Sequence record: PQ133007
DNA: 44,212 nt
DNA from: Escherichia phage Henu5_1
Reading direction: 5' to 3' (one strand)
Part shown: positions 5,576-44,046 of the stretch, in pieces
Layout of the letters: each line of letters begins with the position of its first letter
How positions within the stretch are numbered: the stretch's first letter is position 1
The notes under the pieces: model-generated
The model's database searches: none
The model's input: the letters and a program-made list of their open reading frames with translations, nothing else
What the model was told of the DNA's origin: nothing
Translations under genes and position numbers: made by a program

Positions 5576-6053
5576 CAACGGTCTAAGATTCACGGCAGCA
5601 TGGGAGGCTTTCAGCCCGGTGCCGTATTTCGCGACCAAGAAAGAGCAGGCCCGCGGCCTGTACACCTGGGGTTATGGTCATACAGGCACTAATCCGCCTC
5701 GAAGCATTACCCGCGAGGAGGCGCTGGCACTGCTCAAGCGCGATGTGGCGTATGCCGAGGACTGGGTTAGCAAATACGCACATCCGAGCATTAACCAGGC
5801 GCAATTCGACGCGCTGGTGGATCTGGTAATCAACGCCGGTCCTGGTCCGATCGTACCTGATGACGTCGCGAATGATTTCGATGACGCTGTGCGGTTGGGC
5901 GACTGGGCGAAGGTCCGTGCTACGCTGCCGCTGTTCCGCAAGCAAGGCGGGGAAGTGCTTAAGGGTCTGGTACGCCGTGCAATCGGCAGACAGGCGTTGT
6001 TTGATGGTAAGCAGTGGGACGTTGCCGAGCGAATCGGTCGTAACGCAGCATAA
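5562..6053 (+). CDS. Endolysin (phage lysozyme, GH24-like)
   Basis: 163 aa; N-terminal region with E...GYGHT lysozyme-like motif; position after holin candidates. Confidence 0.7.
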   Translation: MRFSDNGLRFTAAWEAFSPVPYFATKKEQARGLYTWGYGHTGTNPPRSITREEALALLKRDVAYAEDWVSKYAHPSINQAQFDALVDLVINAGPGPIVPDDVANDFDDAVRLGDWAKVRATLPLFRKQGGEVLKGLVRRAIGRQALFDGKQWDVAERIGRNAA

Positions 6054-6069
6054 TACGAGGGGACACGAT

Positions 6070-6483
6070 ATGTTGAAAAGTATTCTTGATCATAATGCGG
6101 ACGCGCTTGCCGCACTGGCTAAAACCGAAGATCCTGACGCACGCGCTATCATCGCGGACACTATCAGCCACGCGGGGGTCTTCAATGCGAAGTTACCCAG
6201 CCCGCCGGAAAGTAAGCCGGTGGCAAGTGCGACCATAACCATCACCCCAGTGTCCGCCGCAGTTGGCGCGAAGGCCGCCGCTTCAGTTGCCGTCCTGCCA
6301 TCCGACGCAACTAACAAGGCCGGGGCGTGGGTGTCTGCAAACCCAGACTGTGCGGCAATCAATCAGGCTACCGGCGAAATCACAGCAAAATCGGAGGGTA
6401 GCGTCCACATCTTCTGGGTGGCATCCGATGGAGGCGGGGCGATGGCGTCCGCCATCTTCACCGTAACGGGAGCCGCAGAATAA
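6070..6483 (+). CDS. Ig-like (Big_2-type) domain protein
   Basis: In-frame ATG 6070 with GAGGGG RBS inside track ORF 5860-6483; C-terminal beta-rich segment resembles bacterial Ig-like domain. Confidence 0.5.
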   Translation: MLKSILDHNADALAALAKTEDPDARAIIADTISHAGVFNAKLPSPPESKPVASATITITPVSAAVGAKAAASVAVLPSDATNKAGAWVSANPDCAAINQATGEITAKSEGSVHIFWVASDGGGAMASAIFTVTGAAE

Positions 6484-6492
6484 AACCCAGCA

Positions 6493-6517
6493 AGCCCGGT
6501 TAATTCCGGGCTTTTTA
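6493..6517 (+). terminator. Rho-independent terminator
   Basis: AGCCCGG-TTAATT-CCGGGCT followed by TTTTT. Confidence 0.6.
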
Positions 6518-6521
6518 TTGC

Positions 6522-6552
6522 TTGACTTGCAACCAACATAGACGCCATACTG
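6522..6552 (+). promoter_or_regulatory. Putative promoter (TTGACT -35) with TGCAACCAAC motif in spacer
   Basis: TTGACT at 6522-6527; weak -10 CATACT; motif copies at 6527-6537 and about 6553-6561. Confidence 0.35.
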
Positions 6553-6580
6553 CGACCAATCAACGAGAGGAGTAATAAAG

Positions 6581-6661
6581 ATGGCACGTAAAGATATTTG
6601 GGTATTAGCGATCTGGACCACCGCGGCTTTTATCGGCATGGTTATTTGCGAATTGATATAG
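6581..6661 (+). CDS. Possible 26-aa hydrophobic peptide
   Basis: ATG 6581 with GAGAGGAG RBS; hand-translated MARKDIWVLAIWTTAAFIGMVICELI; very short, low confidence. Confidence 0.25.
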   Translation: MARKDIWVLAIWTTAAFIGMVICELI

Positions 6662-6674
6662 CCCGCCGCCATAC

Positions 6675-6700
6675 GGACCGTGGTATATTGTCCACGGTCC
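6675..6700. promoter_or_regulatory. Perfect 9-bp inverted repeat GGACCGTGG-N8-CCACGGTCC (operator-like)
   Basis: Palindrome with TATATT in the 8-nt spacer, 23 nt upstream of HTH-phosphoesterase gene start. Confidence 0.4.
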
Positions 6701-6722
6701 ACTAATCAGGAATTAATTAAAT

Positions 6723-7865
6723 ATGCACCCGCAAACTAAAATTACCGATGAGCAATTGATCGCAGAAATTCAGGCAGGGACTACGGTTAAAGAGATTGCG
6801 AAGAAATACGGGATTGCCCTGCGCAATGTCTATATGCGGAAAGCCCGCCTATCGAAAAAAGGAATTGGGCACGGCAACGATGCCGTAATCCGCAAGCGCG
6901 TTGCCGATGGCTTCGGCGTTAAGCGCGTATCGGCCCTGGTGCGCGGCAATGGCGAAGAGGTCATGTCGTGGGTCATCACTGAGCAGGACAAGGAGCGCCA
7001 ACTCGAAGCTATGCGCGCTGTTGTCGATGGCATGAACAGCGAAATCACACCGGCAGCGCCAGTAAAAGCCCCGCCAGTCCCGATCCAGGCGCTCGACTTG
7101 CTAAACCTGTACACCGTGTCAGACTTCCACCTGGGCATGTTGGCATGGGGCGAGGAGACTGGAGAAGACTGGGATATGGCGATCGCCGAAGACCTGTTCT
7201 ACCGCTGGTTTGTCGAAGCCTTCGCCCGCGCACCGGACGCAGGCACTGCCGTGATCAATATCCTCGGCGATATGGCGCACTTTGATAGCCTTGATGCCGT
7301 CACCCCCGCCAGCGGGCACGTACTGGATGCCGACACTCGATACCAGAAGTTGGTCCGCTATATGATACGCATGGTGCGCAACGTCGTAGACCTGGCGCTG
7401 CAAAAACACCATAAAGTCAAACTGCTAATCGTCCAGGGTAATCATGACGAGTCGGGCATGATTTGGCTTGCTGAGATGTTCAACACGCTGTACGAGAACG
7501 AGCCGCGCGTCGATGTGGATACGTCCCCGGACGTCTACAAAATGGTGCAGCACGGTAAGACCACGCTGTTTTTCCACCACGGGCACAAAGCGCGATTCGA
7601 TGCTATCGAGCAGGTTATGATCGCTAAATTCAGACAGGCGTTCGGGTCGAGCGAATACAGCTACGCGCACGTAGGTCATTTGCACCACCAGAAGATTGTC
7701 GAGTCTCGCAACATGATTGTTGAACAGCACCGGACGCTCGCAGCGAAAGACGCCTACGCCAGCCGCGGCGGCTGGATGAGCGGTCGCAGTGCCAACGTCA
7801 TTACCTACAGCGCCAACTACGGCGAAGTAGCGCGCTTAACCATTAGCCCGGAAATGTTGAAGTAA
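6723..7865 (+). CDS. HTH domain fused to calcineurin-like metallophosphoesterase
   Basis: N-terminal HTH-like TVKEIAKKYGIALRNVYMRKARL; phosphoesterase motifs DFH, GDMAHFD, GNHDE, HHGH, GHLHH. Confidence 0.6.
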   Translation: MHPQTKITDEQLIAEIQAGTTVKEIAKKYGIALRNVYMRKARLSKKGIGHGNDAVIRKRVADGFGVKRVSALVRGNGEEVMSWVITEQDKERQLEAMRAVVDGMNSEITPAAPVKAPPVPIQALDLLNLYTVSDFHLGMLAWGEETGEDWDMAIAEDLFYRWFVEAFARAPDAGTAVINILGDMAHFDSLDAVTPASGHVLDADTRYQKLVRYMIRMVRNVVDLALQKHHKVKLLIVQGNHDESGMIWLAEMFNTLYENEPRVDVDTSPDVYKMVQHGKTTLFFHHGHKARFDAIEQVMIAKFRQAFGSSEYSYAHVGHLHHQKIVESRNMIVEQHRTLAAKDAYASRGGWMSGRSANVITYSANYGEVARLTISPEMLK

Positions 7866-34914: not shown

Positions 34915-35606
34915 TTTAAATTTTCCTCGTTAACCGCTATCGCGAAGCCGCGCGGGGTGAGTGAGCGGATTAATTTTGTACGAGCGGATTTACCACCGAG
35001 GCGACTATACTGTTTCGAGTACCCTTTTTCAACGAAAACAGGTTTCTTCTCTGGCATACGGAAGCCGTTGCCGGTCCATAAGCAGGTCAGCTTCGGATAT
35101 GAATCGCGGGCGTTGATGTATTCCGGGAAGAGCGGGTGTACGTCATCCTCCGGCAGATATCCGCCATACTCCCACGGGTCAAACGAGTGGTCCGGCTTAC
35201 GCCATTGAGTTGATAGCACGCTGCGCGGATTCTCAATCATATACGGCACTTCAAAGAAATCACCCAGGTAAGCGGCGATCTTCGCGGTGCGCACTGCCTT
35301 AAGCTGGAAGGCAGGGTCGCGGGCGCGCTTGCGCGGGAAAGCTGGCGCACCGCTCACCGCCAGATCCGTACACGGCGGGAATGCGTAAATGATATCCGGC
35401 GTGCCGAAATCGCCATTCATCGCACGGTCCACGAAGTCCAGATCGATAAACTCATTACGATAGCGGATCCCGCGACCATAAATCCTGTAGTCCAGGTACG
35501 ACCCGTGATCGGCTTCGGAGTAGTTGAAGCAATAACACTTATGCCCCATCTCGGCAGCACGCTCAATCATCAAGCCGCTGCCGTCAAATAATGACCAGAT
35601 AATCAT
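34911..35606 (-). CDS. DNA cytosine-C5 methyltransferase-like protein (short)
   Basis: FDGSG (motif I-like), AFPPCTDLAVSG (motif IV PC-like), ENP (motif VI ENV-like); 231 aa, shorter than typical Dcm. Confidence 0.55.
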   Translation of the reverse strand: MIIWSLFDGSGLMIERAAEMGHKCYCFNYSEADHGSYLDYRIYGRGIRYRNEFIDLDFVDRAMNGDFGTPDIIYAFPPCTDLAVSGAPAFPRKRARDPAFQLKAVRTAKIAAYLGDFFEVPYMIENPRSVLSTQWRKPDHSFDPWEYGGYLPEDDVHPLFPEYINARDSYPKLTCLWTGNGFRMPEKKPVFVEKGYSKQYSRLGGKSARTKLIRSLTPRGFAIAVNEENLK

Positions 35607-37027
35607 TTGCGCGCCTTTTTAGCTTTCATGTATTCCATTAAATCGTCCTGAATATCTCGCTTACTGTCGCGGCGCTCTGCGACCAGTTCATCAAGTGTGC
35701 CGCGCGCCTGGATAATGTAGACGAATACCGGGCGAGGGTGTCCGGCTTGCATCTGGCGAACTGGCCCGATACGCTCCACGATCTGCGCAAAGTGCTCATA
35801 GTTCCAGGTGTCTGAGAAGATGGCAAGGTGGTGTCCCCCATCCTGCAAGTTAAGGCCGTGACCCGCCGATGCCGGGTGCGCAAACATGATGGGGATCTCG
35901 CCCCTGTTCCACGCTTCCATATCCTTATTGCCTTGCTTACCCTTACCCATCGCTACGCCGTGAGGGAATTTCTTCTTAAGACGTGCCAGATCATGCTTGT
36001 ACTGGTACGCGACGAGCAACGGTGCGCCGTTCAACTCCTCCACGATACTTTCTAGCGCGTCCAGTTTAGCGTCGTGAATTTTCACCCATTCGTCGGTGCG
36101 CTCGCCGTCTTCGTCGACTTTATACACGGCCCCGGAAGCAAGCTGAAGGCACTTAATAGTCTTCGACGCAGCGTTCGCCGCCTCCACAGTTCCGCTTTCC
36201 AGTTCGGCAAATAGCTCCGCTTCGAACTGGTCATAAATCTTGCGGGCTTTCTTCGGCAGGTCCACAACAACCGGCGTATAGATTGGCTTGTCACATCCGA
36301 AGTATTCAGCCGCATCAACTGTGAGCGACACGTCGGACAGGCGTTGTTGTATTTCTTTCTCGGAGTTCTTAAGCGGGGCGTGCTGCATAGTGAAGCTGCC
36401 AGGCTTAACGGGCTTGCTAATAAACCAGCGATCCGTGAATGCCTTATAGCTGCTGCCGAGGCGTTCGCCACCATCGACAAACCACGTCTGACCCCACAGG
36501 TCTTTCAGTCCGTTTGGTGCGGGTGTGCCGGTCAGGTTAATCCAGCGCTTGACGTGCTTATGGGCGATCGCCGCCAGTGCGCGGGCGCGCTTACTCCCCT
36601 GCTTGCTTCTATAACCTTTCAGCTTAGTGGATTCATCGGCAACCACGACCGTAAAGGGCCACTCGTCGCCGCAATACTCGACGAGCCACTCAACCACATC
36701 ATAGTTAACACAAACCACGTTGGCGTCGCTCTCAATCGCCGCAATACGGGCCTTCTCGGATCCGGTGCCGTCTACTACCAGCAAGGCGGGGAAGCGCCAT
36801 TTTTCTTGCTCCGGGGGCCATGTACCAGATGCAACGCGCAGCGGGGCCAGCACCAGTACGCGGTCCTCCTGGTTGGACAGGATGCCGGTCTGGAACATTT
36901 TATTCAGCGCCCACATGGTCGCGCCAGTTTTACCCGACCCCATTGTCGCCCAAATATTGCAGCGCTTATGCTTGAGGATGAACGCGGTTATCAACTTCTG
37001 ATATTCGCGACGTCGGAATCTTGCCAT
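35603..37027 (-). CDS. SNF2-family helicase/ATPase
   Basis: Walker A GSGKTG, DEST (DExx) box, C-terminal helicase motif; ATG 37027 inside track ORF 35603-37117. Confidence 0.7.
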   Translation of the reverse strand: MARFRRREYQKLITAFILKHKRCNIWATMGSGKTGATMWALNKMFQTGILSNQEDRVLVLAPLRVASGTWPPEQEKWRFPALLVVDGTGSEKARIAAIESDANVVCVNYDVVEWLVEYCGDEWPFTVVVADESTKLKGYRSKQGSKRARALAAIAHKHVKRWINLTGTPAPNGLKDLWGQTWFVDGGERLGSSYKAFTDRWFISKPVKPGSFTMQHAPLKNSEKEIQQRLSDVSLTVDAAEYFGCDKPIYTPVVVDLPKKARKIYDQFEAELFAELESGTVEAANAASKTIKCLQLASGAVYKVDEDGERTDEWVKIHDAKLDALESIVEELNGAPLLVAYQYKHDLARLKKKFPHGVAMGKGKQGNKDMEAWNRGEIPIMFAHPASAGHGLNLQDGGHHLAIFSDTWNYEHFAQIVERIGPVRQMQAGHPRPVFVYIIQARGTLDELVAERRDSKRDIQDDLMEYMKAKKARK

Positions 37028-37031
37028 ATCT

Positions 37032-37250
37032 TTATTCCGCCTTTTTCCAGACTTCTGTCTCACTGTTCCAGTTCCTTTTTGTAGCGTCGTAGTTGGTGGC
37101 GTGTCCGATGTGCACACCAGTCGCCCGGAAGCTCTTAAATTTTTGCCAGCACACCGTCAACGGCATCGGGTCATTCATGCCTGCAATAAACCATACGCGA
37201 TCGCCTGGTTTGCATTCGCCCAGCTTGGTGAGTCGGTAATGTTCTTTCAT
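37032..37250 (-). CDS. Small hypothetical protein
   Basis: ATG 37250 with GGGAGA RBS inside track ORF 37032-37265. Confidence 0.45.
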   Translation of the reverse strand: MKEHYRLTKLGECKPGDRVWFIAGMNDPMPLTVCWQKFKSFRATGVHIGHATNYDATKRNWNSETEVWKKAE

Positions 37251-37507: not shown

Positions 37508-37786
37508 TTAAGCGACCAATTCAGCAACCAATAAATCACAGTCGGCTATGCTGTCGATAACGCGAACGTCCGCACCGCGGCGGGCCATTCGCTCATGTTC
37601 TCGTACCTGGTGCGGCTTAGGTTTACCGCCTGGGCGCTTCACTTCGACGAAAACTATCTTGCCGTTGATGATGATTATAAGGTCGGGCGCTCCCGCGCGC
37701 CCCTCCCATGCCACTTTACGGCAGAATCCGCCGACGGCTTTAACCAACTTCATAAGGTGACTTTGGATCTTGCCTTCTGGTGTCAT
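37508..37786 (-). CDS. VRR-NUC domain nuclease
   Basis: GAPDLIIIINGKIVFVEVKRPGGKPKPHQ matches the PD-(D/E)xK VRR-NUC signature; start overlaps DNA polymerase stop. Confidence 0.6.
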   Translation of the reverse strand: MTPEGKIQSHLMKLVKAVGGFCRKVAWEGRAGAPDLIIIINGKIVFVEVKRPGGKPKPHQVREHERMARRGADVRVIDSIADCDLLVAELVA

Positions 37787-40077
37787 TATTTTCTGTACCT
37801 GTACATAATGTCGCCTTCCGCGGCAAGCGGGAAGCCTTTCGCCCAAACCGGCAGGTCGCACATCAGCGCGCACAACTCCTCGGTTGTGTAGTCGTCAGTA
37901 TCCGGCACTTCGGTTATCAGTTCATCGTGCACTGACAGGACGATCTCATATCCCGCGGCTTCAACGCCCGGCATGGACCATGCGAGAATATCGCGGCACA
38001 GCGCCTGCACGATGTTCTCCGTAAGTTTGCCACCGTAGGTGTACTGGAAGCCCCACTGGCGGGTCGTCTGATTCTCGCCCTGATATTTAATGCGGGTGCT
38101 GGTGCGCTTCTTGCCGGTATCTTCGTCGATCTCGGTCGTGACAGACAGCGCGATGCCGGGGTAGCTCATGATGCGCCCCGACGGTAACTCAATTTTCAAC
38201 CACCACCCCGCGGCGTTAGGGTCGTCGCGCTCCTCGTCGAAGGTTGGGTCATGCTTCGCCTTCGTGCGGACTATCTTGAGCGCTTTCTTACCATCCGGGC
38301 GAACGTTCGCGCCGGCCCAGTACGCTTTGCCCGGATTGCGGATTGCACACAACACCGCGTCTTCCAGTTCAGCCCAAAATGCTACCGTCTTCGGGTGGGC
38401 CTCGCGCCACATACGTTTAATCGCATCACATGTAAGCCATACGTTTTTCGGCAGTATGTAAGTTGGGCGCTCGTCCTTCTTGCCAGGCTTCGGCGGGCGC
38501 TTCGCCTCGTTAATGCGGGCGTACTCATAACCCCGTTTCGCCGCGGCCCAAATGTGATCGGGAAATGTGCCCTTCATGACGTCCGCCATCGCGTAAAGGT
38601 CGAGGCCCAGGTTTTTAGCGAACTGCAAGAACGCCGCCACGCCACCACCATAGCCCAGGCCCAATTCGCACGCCTTACCGATCTGGCGTAAGTCTTTGCG
38701 GTTGGCTTTAATGTATTCTGGGTCAAGGCCGAACATCTTACCGGCAGTTTCACAATAGATATCGCGACCGGCCCTAAACACCATGAGCGCTGTTTTCTCG
38801 CCAGCGATCCAGGCAAGTCCACGCCCTTCCACGTTGGAGTAGTCCGCTACGACAAACTTCTTACCCTTCGCCGGAATAATGCACCCGCGGACAGTCGAGG
38901 CCGTTAGCTTCGATATGTCATACGCCCAGTGCGCTGTCCCACGTAACAGGGAGTTGATGCCGTTGGTGAGCATGTGCGACCGCACCCAAAAAGCGACGTC
39001 GCTCTCGCCTTCACGGCGTTTAATCTTCCCTTCGTGGTCGTCGCTATATTCGCCGCGTGCCAGGTTTTGCGGCTGGAAGCCTTTACCGGCCCAGCGTAGC
39101 GTGCGCTTTGCGCCGCCATACTGAAGACACCCACGGCGGCGACCATCGGCGGATAGGCCATTAACGAGCGGATTGTACTTAGTCGACGCCGTGGATGACG
39201 CACCGAGGCGCATCTCGATAAGCACTTTGCCTTCGTCCGGGAAGTCTGGATCTTCCAGCAGGTCGTTAAGCGTGGATTTCTGCGCGTTGTGGATTGTGAA
39301 CGCAGGCGCGAGGTCGCGCAGCGCGGGCAGGAAGTCATTGCCGGTTAGCTTACCGCCGAAGCGCTCCCAGGCTTCTTCCTTTAATTCTTCCTTATGCGCC
39401 TGTACCGCTTTGATCGCAGCGCGTGCCAGGTCAACGTCCACATAGAAGCCGCGGTCGTTAATCAACTGGTCAATAAGCAGGATTTCGTCTTCCTTCGGCG
39501 TATTACCCCAGTCCGGTATGCGCCAATAGACTTCCCTCATCGCGATGATATCCAGCGCGGCATAGCGCAGGAATTTAGCCCATTCTTCAGGGTGAGTCTC
39601 GCGGGTGTAGCGGCGGATTTTGTAGGTCTTAGGGGTTGGCTTACAGAAGCGTTTGATCAGCGCCTTGCCAGCCTTATCCTTCGCGTGTTCTGCGTCAACG
39701 CCCAGCACCTGGCATTGCATATCGAGGCTACCTGGCAGCGCGTGTCGGAAGGCCATAATCATGGTGTCTTCGATCTGGCCTACCGGCAGGTCAATGCCCC
39801 ACTTCTCGCGAATAACCAGGCGGTCAAACAGGAGGCCGTTAGCCATCACGATTTTTGCTTTCTTGCGAGATACCCGGCGGAGCGCCTTGCGCAGTTCACG
39901 CGGCATTGTGGGGGACTCGGTGCAATCCCATGTCTGCACGCGGCCCTCGTCGATGGCGTAGGTGCAAATCATAATCTCGGTGGTTGGGTGCTCTGCGTAG
40001 GCGTATGCGCCCACTTTCTTCAGGTCTACCCCGCTAAATGTTTCGGTGTCGAGAAACAGGCGTTCAAAGTCTTTCAT
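37786..40077 (-). CDS. DNA polymerase, family A, with 3'-5' exonuclease domain
   Basis: 763 aa; exo motif LFLDTETF, motif A DYSNVEGR, motif C VHDE. Confidence 0.9.
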   Translation of the reverse strand: MKDFERLFLDTETFSGVDLKKVGAYAYAEHPTTEIMICTYAIDEGRVQTWDCTESPTMPRELRKALRRVSRKKAKIVMANGLLFDRLVIREKWGIDLPVGQIEDTMIMAFRHALPGSLDMQCQVLGVDAEHAKDKAGKALIKRFCKPTPKTYKIRRYTRETHPEEWAKFLRYAALDIIAMREVYWRIPDWGNTPKEDEILLIDQLINDRGFYVDVDLARAAIKAVQAHKEELKEEAWERFGGKLTGNDFLPALRDLAPAFTIHNAQKSTLNDLLEDPDFPDEGKVLIEMRLGASSTASTKYNPLVNGLSADGRRRGCLQYGGAKRTLRWAGKGFQPQNLARGEYSDDHEGKIKRREGESDVAFWVRSHMLTNGINSLLRGTAHWAYDISKLTASTVRGCIIPAKGKKFVVADYSNVEGRGLAWIAGEKTALMVFRAGRDIYCETAGKMFGLDPEYIKANRKDLRQIGKACELGLGYGGGVAAFLQFAKNLGLDLYAMADVMKGTFPDHIWAAAKRGYEYARINEAKRPPKPGKKDERPTYILPKNVWLTCDAIKRMWREAHPKTVAFWAELEDAVLCAIRNPGKAYWAGANVRPDGKKALKIVRTKAKHDPTFDEERDDPNAAGWWLKIELPSGRIMSYPGIALSVTTEIDEDTGKKRTSTRIKYQGENQTTRQWGFQYTYGGKLTENIVQALCRDILAWSMPGVEAAGYEIVLSVHDELITEVPDTDDYTTEELCALMCDLPVWAKGFPLAAEGDIMYRYRK

Positions 40078-40244
40078 TGCTTAATCCTCACCACGGCGTC
40101 AGCACTGCCGATCATGGAGAAGATACCGTCGGAAAGGGTAATCTCCTCACCGTTGTTGCGAATCTCGGCAACTGTGAAATATTCGCCCAGCATTTTGGAC
40201 CATACTTGCATTCCGACTTTTACTTCGCTGGCTTTAATACGCAT
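40074..40244 (-). CDS. Small hypothetical protein (56 aa, below threshold), translationally coupled to DNA polymerase
   Basis: Hand-translated MRIKASEVKVGMQVWSKMLGEYFTVAEIRNNGEEITLSDGIFSMIGSADAVVRIKQ; stop overlaps polymerase ATG (ATGA); AGGA RBS. Confidence 0.4.
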   Translation of the reverse strand: MRIKASEVKVGMQVWSKMLGEYFTVAEIRNNGEEITLSDGIFSMIGSADAVVRIKQ

Positions 40245-40261
40245 TTTTCATTGTCCTATTA

Positions 40262-40284
40262 AAAAGCCCGCATTAAGCGGGCTT
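40262..40284 (-). terminator. Rho-independent terminator on minus strand
   Basis: Minus RNA AAGCCCGC-UUAA-UGCGGGCUU followed by UUUUU, downstream of gene 40303-41034. Confidence 0.5.
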
Positions 40285-40302
40285 GAATAGTGGGCTTTGC
40301 CC

Positions 40303-41034
40303 TTAACGGCGGCGACGTTTACGTGGTGCTTCGTCTTCGTCGTCTTCGTCCTCATCTTCGTCATCGCGTGGCTTTCGACGTTTACGAGGTTTCTCGTCTT
40401 CGTCATCATCGTCGTCATCGCGGCGCTTGGACTTTTTGGACTTGCGCGGGCTTTCATCTTCGTCATCGTTATCCAGGTCTTCGTCTGAGCACGAAGACCC
40501 GCCACCGCCGAAGGCTTCGCCGTCATCACGGAAGCGCAGACCCAAAAGACCAGCACCGAGTCCCTTGCCGTTGGTATTGTTCCACGCCCAGATATCGAGT
40601 GACACGTTGCAATAACAACCGGAGTAGATCTCCTGGCCTTCGATCTCGTCGCCTTCTACGGTCAGACCTTGTTCCGTCTGCTTCTCGCCGAGTGACGTTT
40701 GAATGATCGGCTGTTTGAACGATTTGGCGTTGATGTACAACATGCCTTCGAATTCTTCGGTTACTTCGTCGCGCTCGTCACCATCGCGAACTGCGCATTC
40801 CTTAGAATCCTGGGCGTAGTGGCGGTCCATCCACTTATCAGCATTCTTCTCGGATTTCAGCTTGTCGGTGAGCACTGCGCGCGCTGCCGCTTCCACTTTG
40901 TCCACCTGCGGATCTTCTTTATCCAGAAGAATCACTGCACGGTATGCCGGTTTTTGACCATCCTGTTTAGGGGTATCGCGTTCCCAAATTTTAAGGAAAC
41001 ATACGCGCACATTTTTCAGGTTGACTTTAGCCAT
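40303..41034 (-). CDS. Putative ssDNA-binding protein (DUF2815-like) with extreme acidic/basic C-terminal tail
   Basis: ATG 41034 with GAGGA RBS; N-terminus MAKVNLKNVRV; C-terminal 60 aa alternate D/E runs with KR clusters; family assignment from memory. Confidence 0.45.
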   Translation of the reverse strand: MAKVNLKNVRVCFLKIWERDTPKQDGQKPAYRAVILLDKEDPQVDKVEAAARAVLTDKLKSEKNADKWMDRHYAQDSKECAVRDGDERDEVTEEFEGMLYINAKSFKQPIIQTSLGEKQTEQGLTVEGDEIEGQEIYSGCYCNVSLDIWAWNNTNGKGLGAGLLGLRFRDDGEAFGGGGSSCSDEDLDNDDEDESPRKSKKSKRRDDDDDDEDEKPRKRRKPRDDEDEDEDDEDEAPRKRRRR

Positions 41035-41099: not shown

Positions 41100-41128
41100 A
41101 ATTTACTTGGTTGCGCCTAAGCGGTCAA
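41100..41128 (-). promoter_or_regulatory. Putative promoter (TTGACC-17-TAAATT) with CAACCAAG motifs
   Basis: Motif copies 41091-41100 and 41107-41115 in spacer and just downstream of -10. Confidence 0.4.
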
Positions 41129-41367
41129 GCACTTTCATTAAAAAGATTTCTGGTCACGTAGTTGATGGCGTTCTCGATCCAGCTTAACGGCGGTCGGTCG
41201 ATGTTCTTCTCCACCCAGTCGACGGCAGCGTCACTATAACCGTCATCCAGCCAGCGGGTCGGATGACGAATCATCCACGCCACCATTAACACGCCTTGCA
41301 CGCAATGCAGGATAAAGCCCAGCGCGCCGAGCAAAAACATCAATAAGATCGCAAATACTTTATTCAT
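41125..41367 (-). CDS. Small membrane protein
   Basis: 80 aa, hydrophobic N-terminal half; GAGGA RBS. Confidence 0.5.
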   Translation of the reverse strand: MNKVFAILLMFLLGALGFILHCVQGVLMVAWMIRHPTRWLDDGYSDAAVDWVEKNIDRPPLSWIENAINYVTRNLFNESA

Positions 41368-42790
41368 TGCTTAAGTCCTCGTCAGTGGCCTCCGACCACG
41401 CGGGGCGCGGGTCGTCGATAGGTGCTAACACCGGTTTAGCGGGTGCGCGTGTGATTTTAGCACACAGCTTCGCCCACACTTTCGGTTTTTCGTCCTTCAG
41501 TACCTTCTCGGCATCTGTCGGGCTGAGCAATGTTTCTTTGTACATCACATCGCGCTTGACCCGTGCCTTAGTGAAGATTTCAATCACTTCGCTCTCGTCC
41601 GCCCACTTACGGATCCCTTCCTTACCGGCAACCATCTTGAGGCCCAGCGATTCGCCATCGCCCGCCATGACCGCCTTGAATACCGCGGACTCGATAGCCT
41701 TGATGTGCTGGCGCATTGCGTCCAGACCTTCATAAGCCTTGCGCAGTTCCGCCGCGCTCATAGCGCCTGGTGTGGATTCCTTCTTGCCTCGTTTAGCACG
41801 TCGGGCAGCCTTCCTGGCTTCGCGGGCCATATTGCGATCGTGGTTGGCGCATTCTTCCTCGGTCGCCACGCTCACGTCGTCGCCCAGGTCTTCGTCGGTT
41901 GCCGTTGGTTGGGCCATCGTATCGATTGCAGCCTTAGCGCGGGCGCTACACTGATCCGCAAATCGGCACCACTGACACGCATCAACGCCCGGTCGGAAGT
42001 CGGCACGGGTGAGTCCTTTCTTACCGCGGGCGTACGCTTCCAGGGCGGCGATAGCACGCTTGGACGCAAACTTCGCGAATATCTCCAGGGCTTCTACCGA
42101 AATATCCCACTCTGACGCCCCGCCGCAATACGGCTGGAAGATAACCAGGCGCACCGTCGTAATGTCGTACATGGTTTTCAGCTTGCGCAGTAAGCCCAGC
42201 GCGTACAACATAAGCTGTTTGTTTTCTTTTGCCTCGACCTTATGCCGCCCGGTCTTCAGGTCGCCAACGATCAGCATGTACGTTCCGTCGGTCTTTTTCA
42301 TGACCATGACCATATCGGCAGTACCGAACGTTTTAATCCTGTTGCCGTCGACCTCGAAGCCAGAGTGTAGGACGCGGGTAAGATCGGCGCGCATCTCAAG
42401 CTGAACAAACTCCGCCACTTCGAGGAGCGGTCGCCAGTGGTCGATGTACGCATCGCACTGCTTCACCATATCGTCGTTGACCAGTACGCCGCCTTTCGGT
42501 GCTTTTGGGTGGGCCTTTACCGGCCCCCTGCCTTCGTTCTCGACGTAACATCCTTTATACGTCTTCGCGGTTATTTTCTTCTCACCGGCGATAATGCGGT
42601 TTAGCACCACTTCAGATACGGTGTGCATACTCGTACCGTTAATCGCGGCTTGCCCGGATTCGTTCGGGATATCTTTTTCTACCACCAGGGCGGCGGGACA
42701 CCCCATCCATTTTTTAGCACCGGATGGGCCAAGTAATGAGTGTTCCGTATTACTACCGGATTGCGTTTTACGTTTTGGTTTAATCGCCAT
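41360..42790 (-). CDS. PD-(D/E)xK exonuclease, Cas4-like with 4-Cys cluster (DUF2800-like)
   Basis: 476 aa; N-terminal Cys (MGCPA) and C-terminal C-x2-C-x5-C (DACQWCRFADQC) typical of Cas4/RecB-family Fe-S nucleases. Confidence 0.6.
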   Translation of the reverse strand: MAIKPKRKTQSGSNTEHSLLGPSGAKKWMGCPAALVVEKDIPNESGQAAINGTSMHTVSEVVLNRIIAGEKKITAKTYKGCYVENEGRGPVKAHPKAPKGGVLVNDDMVKQCDAYIDHWRPLLEVAEFVQLEMRADLTRVLHSGFEVDGNRIKTFGTADMVMVMKKTDGTYMLIVGDLKTGRHKVEAKENKQLMLYALGLLRKLKTMYDITTVRLVIFQPYCGGASEWDISVEALEIFAKFASKRAIAALEAYARGKKGLTRADFRPGVDACQWCRFADQCSARAKAAIDTMAQPTATDEDLGDDVSVATEEECANHDRNMAREARKAARRAKRGKKESTPGAMSAAELRKAYEGLDAMRQHIKAIESAVFKAVMAGDGESLGLKMVAGKEGIRKWADESEVIEIFTKARVKRDVMYKETLLSPTDAEKVLKDEKPKVWAKLCAKITRAPAKPVLAPIDDPRPAWSEATDEDLSNE

Positions 42791-43268: not shown

Positions 43269-43811
43269 TTAATCTTCCAGTTCGAAATACGTTTCTACGA
43301 TTTCTTTCAATTCGGTGTGGAAGTCCGCCACGTCGTCGTCTTCCAGTTTAGCGATTGATTTGATCTCGAACGATTCCAGCAGGTCGTCGAATTCGTCGTT
43401 CGCATCATCATCATCGCCGCCTGCGATAATAGCGGCATACTGTTTGATTTCGTCGCGCATCTCTGCCAGCGGGTCGGCATCTTTCTTACCTTTGCCTTTC
43501 GCTGGTGCTTTTTTACCCTTCGCCGGTTTTTCGTCTTCGGCTTCATCATCCTCGTCGTCATCCTCTACGACTTCTTTTTTGGCCTTTCCTTTAGACTTGG
43601 TTTCTTTTGCCGCGCCTTTTTTCGCCTTTGGCGTATCTTCGACTTCGTCCTGATCGTCGTCTTCGACTTCGGTCTCCGGCTTGGCCTTGCCTTTCTTAGC
43701 GGTGCCGTTTGCTTTTTGGTCTACGGCAGCGCCCACAGTTTCATAATGTTTAGCGATGGTTTCCAGTGCTACTACGCCGCGAGTGATCAGGTTTACGATT
43801 TGCTCAAACAT
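43269..43811 (-). CDS. Lys/Asp/Glu-rich low-complexity protein, first gene of minus arm
   Basis: ATG 43811 with GGAGA RBS inside track ORF 43269-44039; alternating K-rich and D/E-rich blocks, strongly acidic C-terminus. Confidence 0.55.
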   Translation of the reverse strand: MFEQIVNLITRGVVALETIAKHYETVGAAVDQKANGTAKKGKAKPETEVEDDDQDEVEDTPKAKKGAAKETKSKGKAKKEVVEDDDEDDEAEDEKPAKGKKAPAKGKGKKDADPLAEMRDEIKQYAAIIAGGDDDDANDEFDDLLESFEIKSIAKLEDDDVADFHTELKEIVETYFELED

Positions 43812-44007
43812 GGTATATCTCCGATTGGTTAAGTTTAGGTGTCGACCATTAACTTCGTCGGTGGCCTTAACATAGAGCCAGGTTACGCGTTCTCCCTTTC
43901 GGGTAGTGGACCTGGTTATATAATCACGGTTGGGAATCCTGACACTTCGATCCGGCCCCTGCGTTGCCCCTCTCCAGTTTGCGTACTGCATCCTGTCGAC
44001 GAGGTGA

Positions 44008-44036
44008 ATATTAGATTGGTTGCAGAAGGGAGTCAA
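44008..44036 (-). promoter_or_regulatory. Strong sigma70-like promoter (TTGACT-17-TAATAT) for the minus arm
   Basis: Near-consensus hexamers with 17-bp spacer containing TGCAACCAAT; about 200 nt upstream of ATG 43811. Confidence 0.5.
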
Positions 44037-44046
44037 CAACTAATTT

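Follow-up and report, generated by a model that had tools for sequence, protein, structure and literature searches.

The gene considered here lies on the minus strand of a 44,212-nucleotide stretch of DNA (the window) from Escherichia phage Henu5_1 (sequence record PQ133007), and encodes an SSB (single-stranded DNA-binding protein) in which a predicted single-stranded DNA (ssDNA)-binding domain is followed by a long tail of alternating acidic and basic blocks. In the open reading frame (ORF) on this strand, an ATG at 41034-41032, with a GAGGA Shine-Dalgarno sequence ahead of it, opens a product of 243 amino acids, which is closed by a TAA at 40305-40303. The gene and its parts are the following:

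40303-41034, minus strand: complete SSB gene, 243 codons plus TAA (ORF list, translation, PF10991, phrog_112)
40507-41034, minus strand: predicted OB-fold ssDNA-binding domain, residues 1-176 (AlphaFold2 (AF2) model, Foldseek, contact residues)
40486-40506, minus strand: Gly/Ser hinge GGGSSCS, residues 177-183 (predicted local distance difference test score (pLDDT) below 50 from residue 178)
40420-40485, minus strand: tail unit 1, residues 184-205, DEDLDNDDEDE-SPRK-SKKSKRR (direct reading; includes the proximal DEDL motif)
40366-40419, minus strand: tail unit 2, residues 206-223, DDDDDDEDE-KPRK-RRKPR (direct reading)
40306-40365, minus strand: tail unit 3, residues 224-243, DDEDEDEDDEDE-APRK-RRRR (basic C-terminus)

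The only Pfam family matched was PF10991 (Enc34_ssDNA-bd, formerly DUF2815), with residues 3-193 aligned to profile positions 2-173 of 176 (109 bits relative to a cut-off of 26, E=2.8e-31), and phrog_112 ('Gp2.5-like ssDNA binding protein and ssDNA annealing protein') was matched at E=6e-56. The name DUF2815 persists in PDB entry 4klk and in several JGI names. Sequence searches of the PDB returned only the DUF2815 structural-genomics proteins 4klk and 4jg2 and the Enc34 SSB (5odj, 5odk and 5odl), and a profile derived from the homologue alignment matched 4jg2, 5odj and 4klk at E=1e-30 to 1e-35. In the AF2 model (51 homologues; overall mean pLDDT 82.6), pLDDT was 92-98 in each 10-residue block up to residue 170, and comparison of the model with the PDB by Foldseek gave 4klk (E=3e-12), the Enc34 SSB-ssDNA complex 5odl (E=7e-12, TM-score 0.76) and T7 gp2.5 (1je5, E=1e-6), the top matches (4klk, 5odl, 5odj, 4jg2 and 1je5) all having a probability of 1.00. 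Canonical tetrameric SSBs were found by Foldseek at E of about 0.4 or worse, and E. coli SSB at E of at least 1. A canonical bacterial SSB of the E. coli type was rejected on the grounds of this last value, of the missing PF00436 match and of a C-terminus that reads PRKRRRR. Of the four Enc34 contact residues called conserved (PMC5686142), Trp150, Asn154 and Arg112 align with W149, N153 and K104, respectively, while the fourth, Lys46, aligns with A30 and is unmatched (K28 lies two residues off); Tyr30 aligns with F13, and Tyr156 with N155, with W151 nearby as in 4jg2 and 4klk. Preferential binding of ssDNA has been demonstrated biochemically in PF10991 for Enc34 ORF6 only (PMC5686142); for the SECphi4/18 orthologue of the present protein the evidence is genetic, from its action as a Retron-Eco8 trigger. 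The gene almost certainly encodes a replication/recombination SSB with a single OB fold of the T7 gp2.5/Enc34 type (PF10991), in a Dhillonvirus-type E. coli siphophage, and the sequence and model data support a division into a predicted ssDNA-binding OB domain (residues 1-176) and a predicted intrinsically disordered tail (residues 177-243). A preliminary description of this DNA had proposed an SSB-type replication protein, in agreement with PF10991, phrog_112 and AF2/Foldseek; its assignment to DUF2815, for which a hidden Markov model search had been suggested, was borne out by the PF10991 score, and the N-terminal domain of about 150 amino acids that it assumed was too short, as the folded part reaches about residue 176.

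Residues 184-243 read DEDLDNDDEDESPRKSKKSKRR / DDDDDDEDEKPRKRRKPR / DDEDEDEDDEDEAPRKRRRR. These last 60 residues contain 30 D/E, 20 K/R and 10 other residues (charged fraction 0.83, net charge -10), and the zwitterionic character noted in the preliminary description is confirmed, with the charges lying in six segregated blocks; the longest uninterrupted D/E run is, however, 12 (residues 224-235) and not 9. The charge segregation is far from chance, since no shuffled sequence reached either the observed kappa (0.62 relative to 0.11 +/- 0.05 in shuffles, 0 of 2000 reaching 0.62) or the observed number of charge-sign runs (6 relative to 25 +/- 3.3, 0 of 5000 being as low). The tail consists of three diverged copies of one unit, namely an acidic run, x-Pro-Arg-Lys and a basic run. 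At the DNA level the copies are 60-84% identical, with the highest value for unit 3 relative to unit 2 (40313-40356 and 40376-40419, 84% over 44 nucleotides (nt) in a gapless repeat search); Tandem Repeats Finder reported only weak period-6/9 repeats (68% matches), the units emerging at the protein level and in the gapless search. In the homologue alignment F175-G-G, at the end of the domain, is almost invariant. Beyond it, pLDDT falls below 50 over most of residues 178-235, with 10-residue block means of 45-56 from residue 181 to the C-terminus. By charge fraction, kappa and pLDDT, the tail is predicted to be a disordered region of the blocky polyampholyte kind.

An initial homologue search was done with the whole protein, and 105 of its 116 matches were zwitterionic; this result was treated as biased, because the word index pre-selects shared words and the survey was therefore enriched for similar tails. 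The survey was repeated with residues 1-178 against 1.84 billion 50%-identity cluster representatives, giving 1851 family members at E<=0.001. Of the representatives with a complete domain, the best 149 had tails of 25 amino acids at the median, with 1 basic and 9 acidic residues, and zwitterionic tails (at least two acidic and at least two basic blocks) were present in 10 of the 149. That the tail differs from simple acidic ones, as previously suggested, consequently also holds within PF10991: at 67 amino acids, with 20 basic residues in three blocks and an RRRR end, it departs from the short acidic norm of the family, usually with a hydrophobic end, but has kept the net negative charge and the proximal acidic-Leu motif. 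Of 263 family tails, 219 have an acidic-[F/L]-acidic motif among their first 20 residues (here S-D-E-D-L-D). On the sequence comparison this motif looks ancestral within the tail, the repeats seeming to be additions distal to it. Some distant family members (in the group P0093, P0116, P0223 and P0256), outside the second zwitterionic clade described below, end in DDDLPF or DDDEIPF, similar to the tip of E. coli SSB (DDDIPF), which suggests that those phage SSBs may plug into the host networks of SSB partners. The Dhillonvirus SSB has no tip of this type.

The OB domain is 98-100% identical to those of HK578, SO-1 and SECphi18 and of about 150 other phage records, HK578 and SECphi18 being classified in Dhillonvirus. 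Matches by tblastn stopped at residue 179, as the program masks the tail, and tails were for this reason read from the fetched loci. In the IMG/VR set, 15 relatives had a complete gene (14 at 94-100% domain identity and one at 86%), encoding proteins of 224-261 amino acids with two, three or four whole units, all 15 in frame. The common four-unit form (for example, locus L001) has two 54-nt copies of the PRKSKKSKRRDD unit in tandem (85% identical); only one is present here (unit 1). The exact 243-amino-acid allele did not occur among the roughly 15 billion proteins of a collection searched for it, pointing to a high allelic turnover. The C-terminus APRKRRRR was identical in the present protein and in all 14 same-genus IMG/VR relatives, the last 12 codons showing four synonymous variants and one non-synonymous variant (107 and 21, respectively, in the domain).

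In a wider set of homologues (30-100% domain identity) with 116 zwitterionic tails, the charge-run z-score was below -3 in 114 of the tails, the net charge was negative in 113, and the acid:basic ratio had an interquartile range of 1.37-1.69. Pro was the second residue in 80% of 418 basic segments (consensus [R/K/A]-P-[R/K/S]-[R/K]...), the first being R, K or A; T made up 3% at this position and S was outside the five commonest residues. Jerseyvirus SETP13 and Kagunavirus Shashou have a single unit (DDLEDDEDETPRRERRRNR) with an Arg-cluster end, Cornellvirus VSiP has two units and an acidic end, Serratia phage Tsm2 has three units, and Dhillonvirus two to four. In a neighbour-joining tree of the domain, the zwitterionic tail fills an 88-leaf clade that holds the SSB studied here and includes Dhillonvirus and sampled members of four Guernseyvirinae lineages. 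A separate 25-leaf clade, with 5-9 basic blocks, and a few singletons are also zwitterionic; in the proteins of this second clade the charge repeats lie between the domain and an acidic-hydrophobic tip (for example, DDDVA). The two clades are separated by acid-only lineages which are as similar to the present SSB as the second clade is, and plain acidic, hydrophobic-ended tails occur outside the first clade in BPP-1, Xfas53, a Casjensviridae Pseudomonas phage, APSE-2 and Enc34. The topology suggests that the alternating-charge tail was gained at least twice in PF10991, a claim which is only suggestive as the neighbour-joining tree carries no support values. In two metagenomic phage contigs of 62-66 kb (loci L025 and L026), a PF10991 SSB of the second clade at 6001-6837 has about seven acid/basic units and belongs to a module of Prim-Pol/DUF3987 primase, DUF2800, SSB, a 694-amino-acid protein and an SNF2 helicase; this type of tail is thus not confined to enterobacterial siphophages.

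Altogether, the sequence comparisons support a block pattern that is selected rather than drifting, with a unit number that would turn over by repeat recombination. The preliminary description had raised the prospect of a variable, unconserved linker. Unit number and length do vary, but the block pattern, the x-Pro-Arg/Lys boundary, the net acidity and, in the genus, APRKRRRR are kept, and since over 100 homologues, some with as little as about 30% identity, retain the pattern, the tail is not an unconserved linker.

The orthologue in SECphi4, SECphi6 and SECphi18 has been reported as a 'predicted SSB (Gp2.5 family)', mutations in which escape Retron-Eco8 and expression of which triggers the retron. 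The escape table also lists additional SSB substitutions and primase-helicase mutations, ShosTA is credited with both SSB and primase-helicase escapes, and a Dhillonvirus SSB triggers type III Sir2-HerA. The structural figure of the Retron-Eco8 escape paper omits the flexible C-terminus, and no prior description of the tail was found in the literature covered, which did not include two Mol Cell 2025 papers on Retron-Eco8. The SSB itself, as a family member and the orthologue of a studied defence trigger, is known; the tail architecture is the new part.

Among characterised SSBs, ORF6 of Enterobacter/Hafnia phage Enc34 (5odj/5odk/5odl) shares with the present protein the PF10991 family, a modified OB fold (TM-score 0.76), key contacts, a similar replication module and a disordered C-terminal tail after an F-G-x-G hinge, but the domain identity is only about 22%, and the Enc34 tail has about 29 residues, is purely acidic (16 D/E) and ends in ...EWDEDEV, whereas the tail here has 67 residues, 20 K/R and RRRR. 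T7 gp2.5 is a structural homologue (Foldseek E=1e-6) at 10-15% identity, a monomer/dimer-type single-OB SSB with a disordered regulatory tail, and both it and the SECphi4-type orthologue trigger Retron-Eco8 via the OB domain. The gp2.5 tail is acidic (...EEADEDGDF) and its C-terminal Phe is essential; the present SSB, in contrast, has basic blocks and no terminal aromatic or hydrophobic residue. The SSBs of SECphi4, SECphi18 and HK578 are the same gene in sister phages (98-100% OB identity), with units ending in PRKRRRR and numbering three (of other composition), four and three, respectively. In T4 gp32, a basic N-terminal 'LAST' arm (Lys/Arg-Ser/Thr) serves cooperativity and an acidic C-terminal arm autoinhibits and recruits partners. 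The likeness to gp32 is by functional analogy only, both charge types occurring here within one arm; gp32 has its arms at opposite ends and unrepeated, and shows no kinship in sequence or fold (it was absent from the fold matches). The disordered linker of E. coli SSB, which governs cooperativity and condensation, is likewise a region of variable length after the OB domain, but is rich in Gly, Gln and Pro and nearly uncharged, and the SSB studied here lacks the DDDIPF tip. An acidic C-terminal tail is treated as near-universal in bacterial and phage SSBs, as a handle for autoinhibition and replisome recruitment. A whole clade appears to have swapped it for a repeated acid/basic polyampholyte, often Arg-ended, as has at least one further lineage. 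Judged from the sequences compared, the new element is a conserved, repeat-built polyampholyte, with an Arg cluster supplanting the canonical acidic-hydrophobic tip in this genus.

The best explanation as a whole is, in our view, an SSB of the gp2.5/Enc34 type together with a mechanism for its tail, and we consider this combination somewhat probable. The mechanism taken separately, a gp2.5-like regulatory tail to which multivalent basic blocks have been added, is plausible but falls short of probable. The tail would keep a gp2.5-type function, in that its net-acidic blocks, from the proximal acidic-Leu motif onward, would mimic ssDNA, occupying the basic DNA cleft and enforcing ssDNA specificity, and would serve to attach the tail to replisome partners, for instance the neighbouring polymerase, the helicase or the exonuclease. 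The x-Pro-Arg/Lys basic blocks and the Arg-rich C-terminus would constitute a second valence, pairing with acidic blocks of the same or a neighbouring SSB and possibly with the DNA backbone; through this charge pairing autoinhibition would be adjusted, and SSB molecules on ssDNA would be encouraged to associate with each other cooperatively and multivalently. The unit number would shift fast by recombination or slippage among the DNA units, while selection would hold the terminal unit, the block pattern and an acidic-to-basic ratio of about 1.5. Partner recruitment and phase-separation-like behaviour, both suggested in the preliminary description for tails of this kind, may apply here. For the acidic part there are precedents: deletion of the Enc34 tail results in binding of double-stranded DNA (dsDNA) as well as ssDNA, the tail sits in the OB groove of a neighbour in Enc34 crystals, and the tail of T7 gp2.5 interacts with both the polymerase and the primase-helicase of T7 (PMC5686142) and competes with ssDNA for the cleft (Marintcheva 2008, as cited in PMC5686142).

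A number of observations weigh against the regulatory tail with added basic blocks. No contact between tail and domain was present in the AF2 model, and no experimental data on the tail were found in the literature covered. The five distinct escape substitutions (T21P, T56P, F95L, F106V and N152H) all fall within the OB domain, leaving the tail untouched, and the genetics is therefore silent on tail function. Unit number ranges from two to four at 94-100% domain identity and is thus not fixed, implying that no precise length is required, and purine-rich repeats are slippage-prone, so that some of the expansion could be neutral. Two database proteins, P0005 (from an isolated phage genome) and P0008, have a frameshifted, non-zwitterionic tail; they are singletons relative to a 537-member cluster (P0001) in the normal frame, and their tails may reflect sequencing errors; if they do not, the repeats may be dispensable. 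Both shift frame inside the repeat and pass the normal stop to end in ...KGKAHYSSPLNAGFLIGQ; one of them is from phage vB_EcoS-22664B1.

A rival explanation is a neutral low-complexity expansion, that is, an ordinary net-acidic tail in which the basic blocks and their copies are tolerated by-products of slippage with no function of their own. Near-identical phages differ in unit number, the 54-nt duplication suffices to explain the difference between L001 and the present gene, the exact allele is missing from the large protein collection, frameshifted variants occur and the tails remain net acidic. On the other hand, the pattern, the boundary Pro and the acid:basic ratio are found in two clades and over domain identities from 100% to about 30%; and as the units within the gene are only 60-84% identical in DNA sequence, their shared protein pattern is more than a recent DNA copy. 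Furthermore, the terminal APRKRRRR is kept in spite of synonymous changes, and the single unit of the Jerseyvirus and Kagunavirus proteins ends in an Arg cluster with no repeat there to slip. We regard a purely neutral origin as rather unlikely, though to be taken seriously. Less likely than this, and compatible with the regulatory tail, is that the basic blocks constitute a second nucleic-acid-binding module, contacting the backbone or minor groove of adjacent duplex and bridging strands for annealing or anchoring the protein at ss/ds junctions, and being covered by the acidic blocks as long as the OB domain has not engaged ssDNA. Two small DNA-binding elements are relevant for comparison, the SPKK turn (Ser/Thr-Pro-Lys/Arg-Lys/Arg) and the AT-hook (Arg-Gly-Arg-Pro core). 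In the tail, an exact SPRK occurs at residues 195-198 (unit 1), in addition to KPRK and APRK, and the RGRP core is absent; among the homologues, 80% of the basic segments begin x-Pro-[R/K]-[R/K], but the rarity of Ser/Thr at position 1 (T 3%) speaks against a true SPKK motif. The PHROG annotation combines SSB and annealing functions, the pairing with an exonuclease is the usual one in recombination, and the altered dsDNA binding of Enc34 upon loss of its tail indicates that tail charge governs DNA selectivity in PF10991. Against a second module, the excess of acidic over basic residues in 113 of the 116 tails should disfavour DNA binding by the whole tail.

A counter-defence device or decoy was also considered, in which the tail would alter detection by Retron-Eco8, ShosTA or type III Sir2-HerA and an arms race would drive its variation: several defence systems sense, or are implicated with, Dhillonvirus SSBs, and no part of the protein changes faster than the tail. 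This is nevertheless very improbable: the tail-bearing SECphi4 SSB still triggers Retron-Eco8, the escape substitutions all map to the OB domain, deletion of the T7 gp2.5 tail leaves Eco8 activation unaffected, and the tail type is also present in phages of unrelated hosts and in metagenomes. That the charged tail is an artefact of annotation or frame, being misframed or untranslated, we consider negligible. A second frame, ORF 40248-40556 on the minus strand, is open through the repeat and is the one used by the two database proteins, but an open alternative frame is expected from the T-poor composition of the repeat; the tail frame is continuous with the OB domain, it is the frame of the 537-member cluster, of all 15 complete IMG/VR relatives and of more than 100 homologues, and it stops 19 nt before a terminator-like hairpin. 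ORFs 40290-40706 and 40297-40488 on the plus strand and 40248-40556 on the minus strand were rejected as composition artefacts, and programmed frameshifting was dismissed as being unsupported beyond the two singleton database proteins.

A more far-reaching form of the regulatory tail, which we consider unlikely, is that the repeats are a selected, modular 'electrostatic zipper', arisen at least twice, by which the SSB would self-associate or condense on ssDNA and organise a replication/recombination focus, with unit number as an evolvable tuning knob. If the basic blocks do give cooperativity, DNA bridging or condensation, these phages provide a tractable natural series for charge patterning in SSB tails, from one unit in Jerseyvirus through two to four in Dhillonvirus to 5-9 in metagenomic relatives; if the blocks are inert, the tail is a mere compositional curiosity in a known protein. 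HK578 and SECphi4/18 belong to Dhillonvirus, a genus with members in the BASEL collection, and SSBs of its type are model triggers (Retron-Eco8, ShosTA-related escape, type III Sir2-HerA) in which the tail has been omitted or left undiscussed in the literature examined.

The SSB gene is flanked by an exonuclease and a polymerase gene, with a helicase (35603-37117), a methyltransferase and an HNH protein farther along, and by two putative expression signals:

41360-42790, minus strand: DUF2800 / PD-(D/E)XK exonuclease (PF10926, E=3e-67; PF12705; phrog_69 exonuclease), candidate partner
37786-40077, minus strand: family-A DNA polymerase (PF00476; phrog_17 DNA polymerase, E=4e-131), candidate tail partner
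41100-41128, minus strand: promoter-like site TTGACC-17-TAAATT upstream of the SSB gene (consensus scan)
40264-40284, minus strand: terminator-like GC-rich hairpin and U-run, beginning 19 nt past the SSB stop

The order of exonuclease and SSB is shared with Tsm2, SETP13, Shashou, BPP-1, UF_RH7, APSE-2 and L025, and in Xfas53 and VSiP an unannotated hypothetical protein takes the exonuclease position beside the SSB. Within the stretches fetched, a family-A polymerase adjoins or lies near the other side of the SSB in Tsm2, SETP13, Shashou, BPP-1 and UF_RH7, and is not beside or near it in VSiP, Xfas53 and APSE-2; in L025, DUF2800 and SSB are followed by the 694-amino-acid protein, which has no recorded Pfam match. 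The hairpin has an 8-bp stem (AAGCCCGC/GCGGGCUU), and the region 40240-40310 on the minus strand folds at -24.6 kcal/mol (z=-3.3). It was not called by a consensus terminator scan, and a search of Rfam on both strands gave nothing above threshold, the sole match being a sub-threshold Trp_leader on this hairpin. The promoter scan found one site relative to 1.2 expected by chance, which is weak evidence for 41100-41128 as the SSB promoter; the site gains indirect support from SECphi4, where an escape mutation for Retron-Eco8 falls in the intergenic region upstream of the orthologous SSB gene.

Two small ORFs on the minus strand adjoin the SSB gene. Between exonuclease and SSB, 41125-41367 encodes 80 amino acids with a hydrophobic N-terminus (MNKVFAILLMFLLGALGFILH...) and matches phrog_11211 (unknown function); VSiP, Shashou and BPP-1 have a small ORF in the corresponding position. 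Between SSB and polymerase, 40074-40244 encodes 56 amino acids (phrog_10102, unknown function), and in SECphi18 a mutant that escapes defence has a frameshift at E21 of the orthologue and is listed beside a polymerase R171L escaper (Stokar-Avihail supplementary table).

No complementary charged tails were obvious on the other replication proteins of the window, with the exception of the 180-amino-acid protein encoded at 43269-43811 on the minus strand (starting at Met77 of the 256-amino-acid ORF 43269-44039), which has a similar acid/basic block design and lies with the SSB in the early/replication arm. Its helical N-terminus leads into acidic blocks alternating with Lys-rich ones, the boundaries being x-Pro-Lys (...EDDDQDEVEDTPKAKKGAAKETKSKGKAKKEVVEDDDEDDEAEDEKPAKGKKAPAKGKGKK...), and its C-terminus is acidic; it matches phrog_3127 (unknown function) and no Pfam family. 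It is a possible co-partner in the electrostatic zipper proposed above. At 80% identity or better, 154 phage records carry this protein, almost all of them bearing the names of E. coli or Dhillonvirus phages; the SSB at 90% identity or above is likewise present in 154 records. Matches to the second protein spanned 426-540 nt, so that the charged region of this protein is probably length-variable too.

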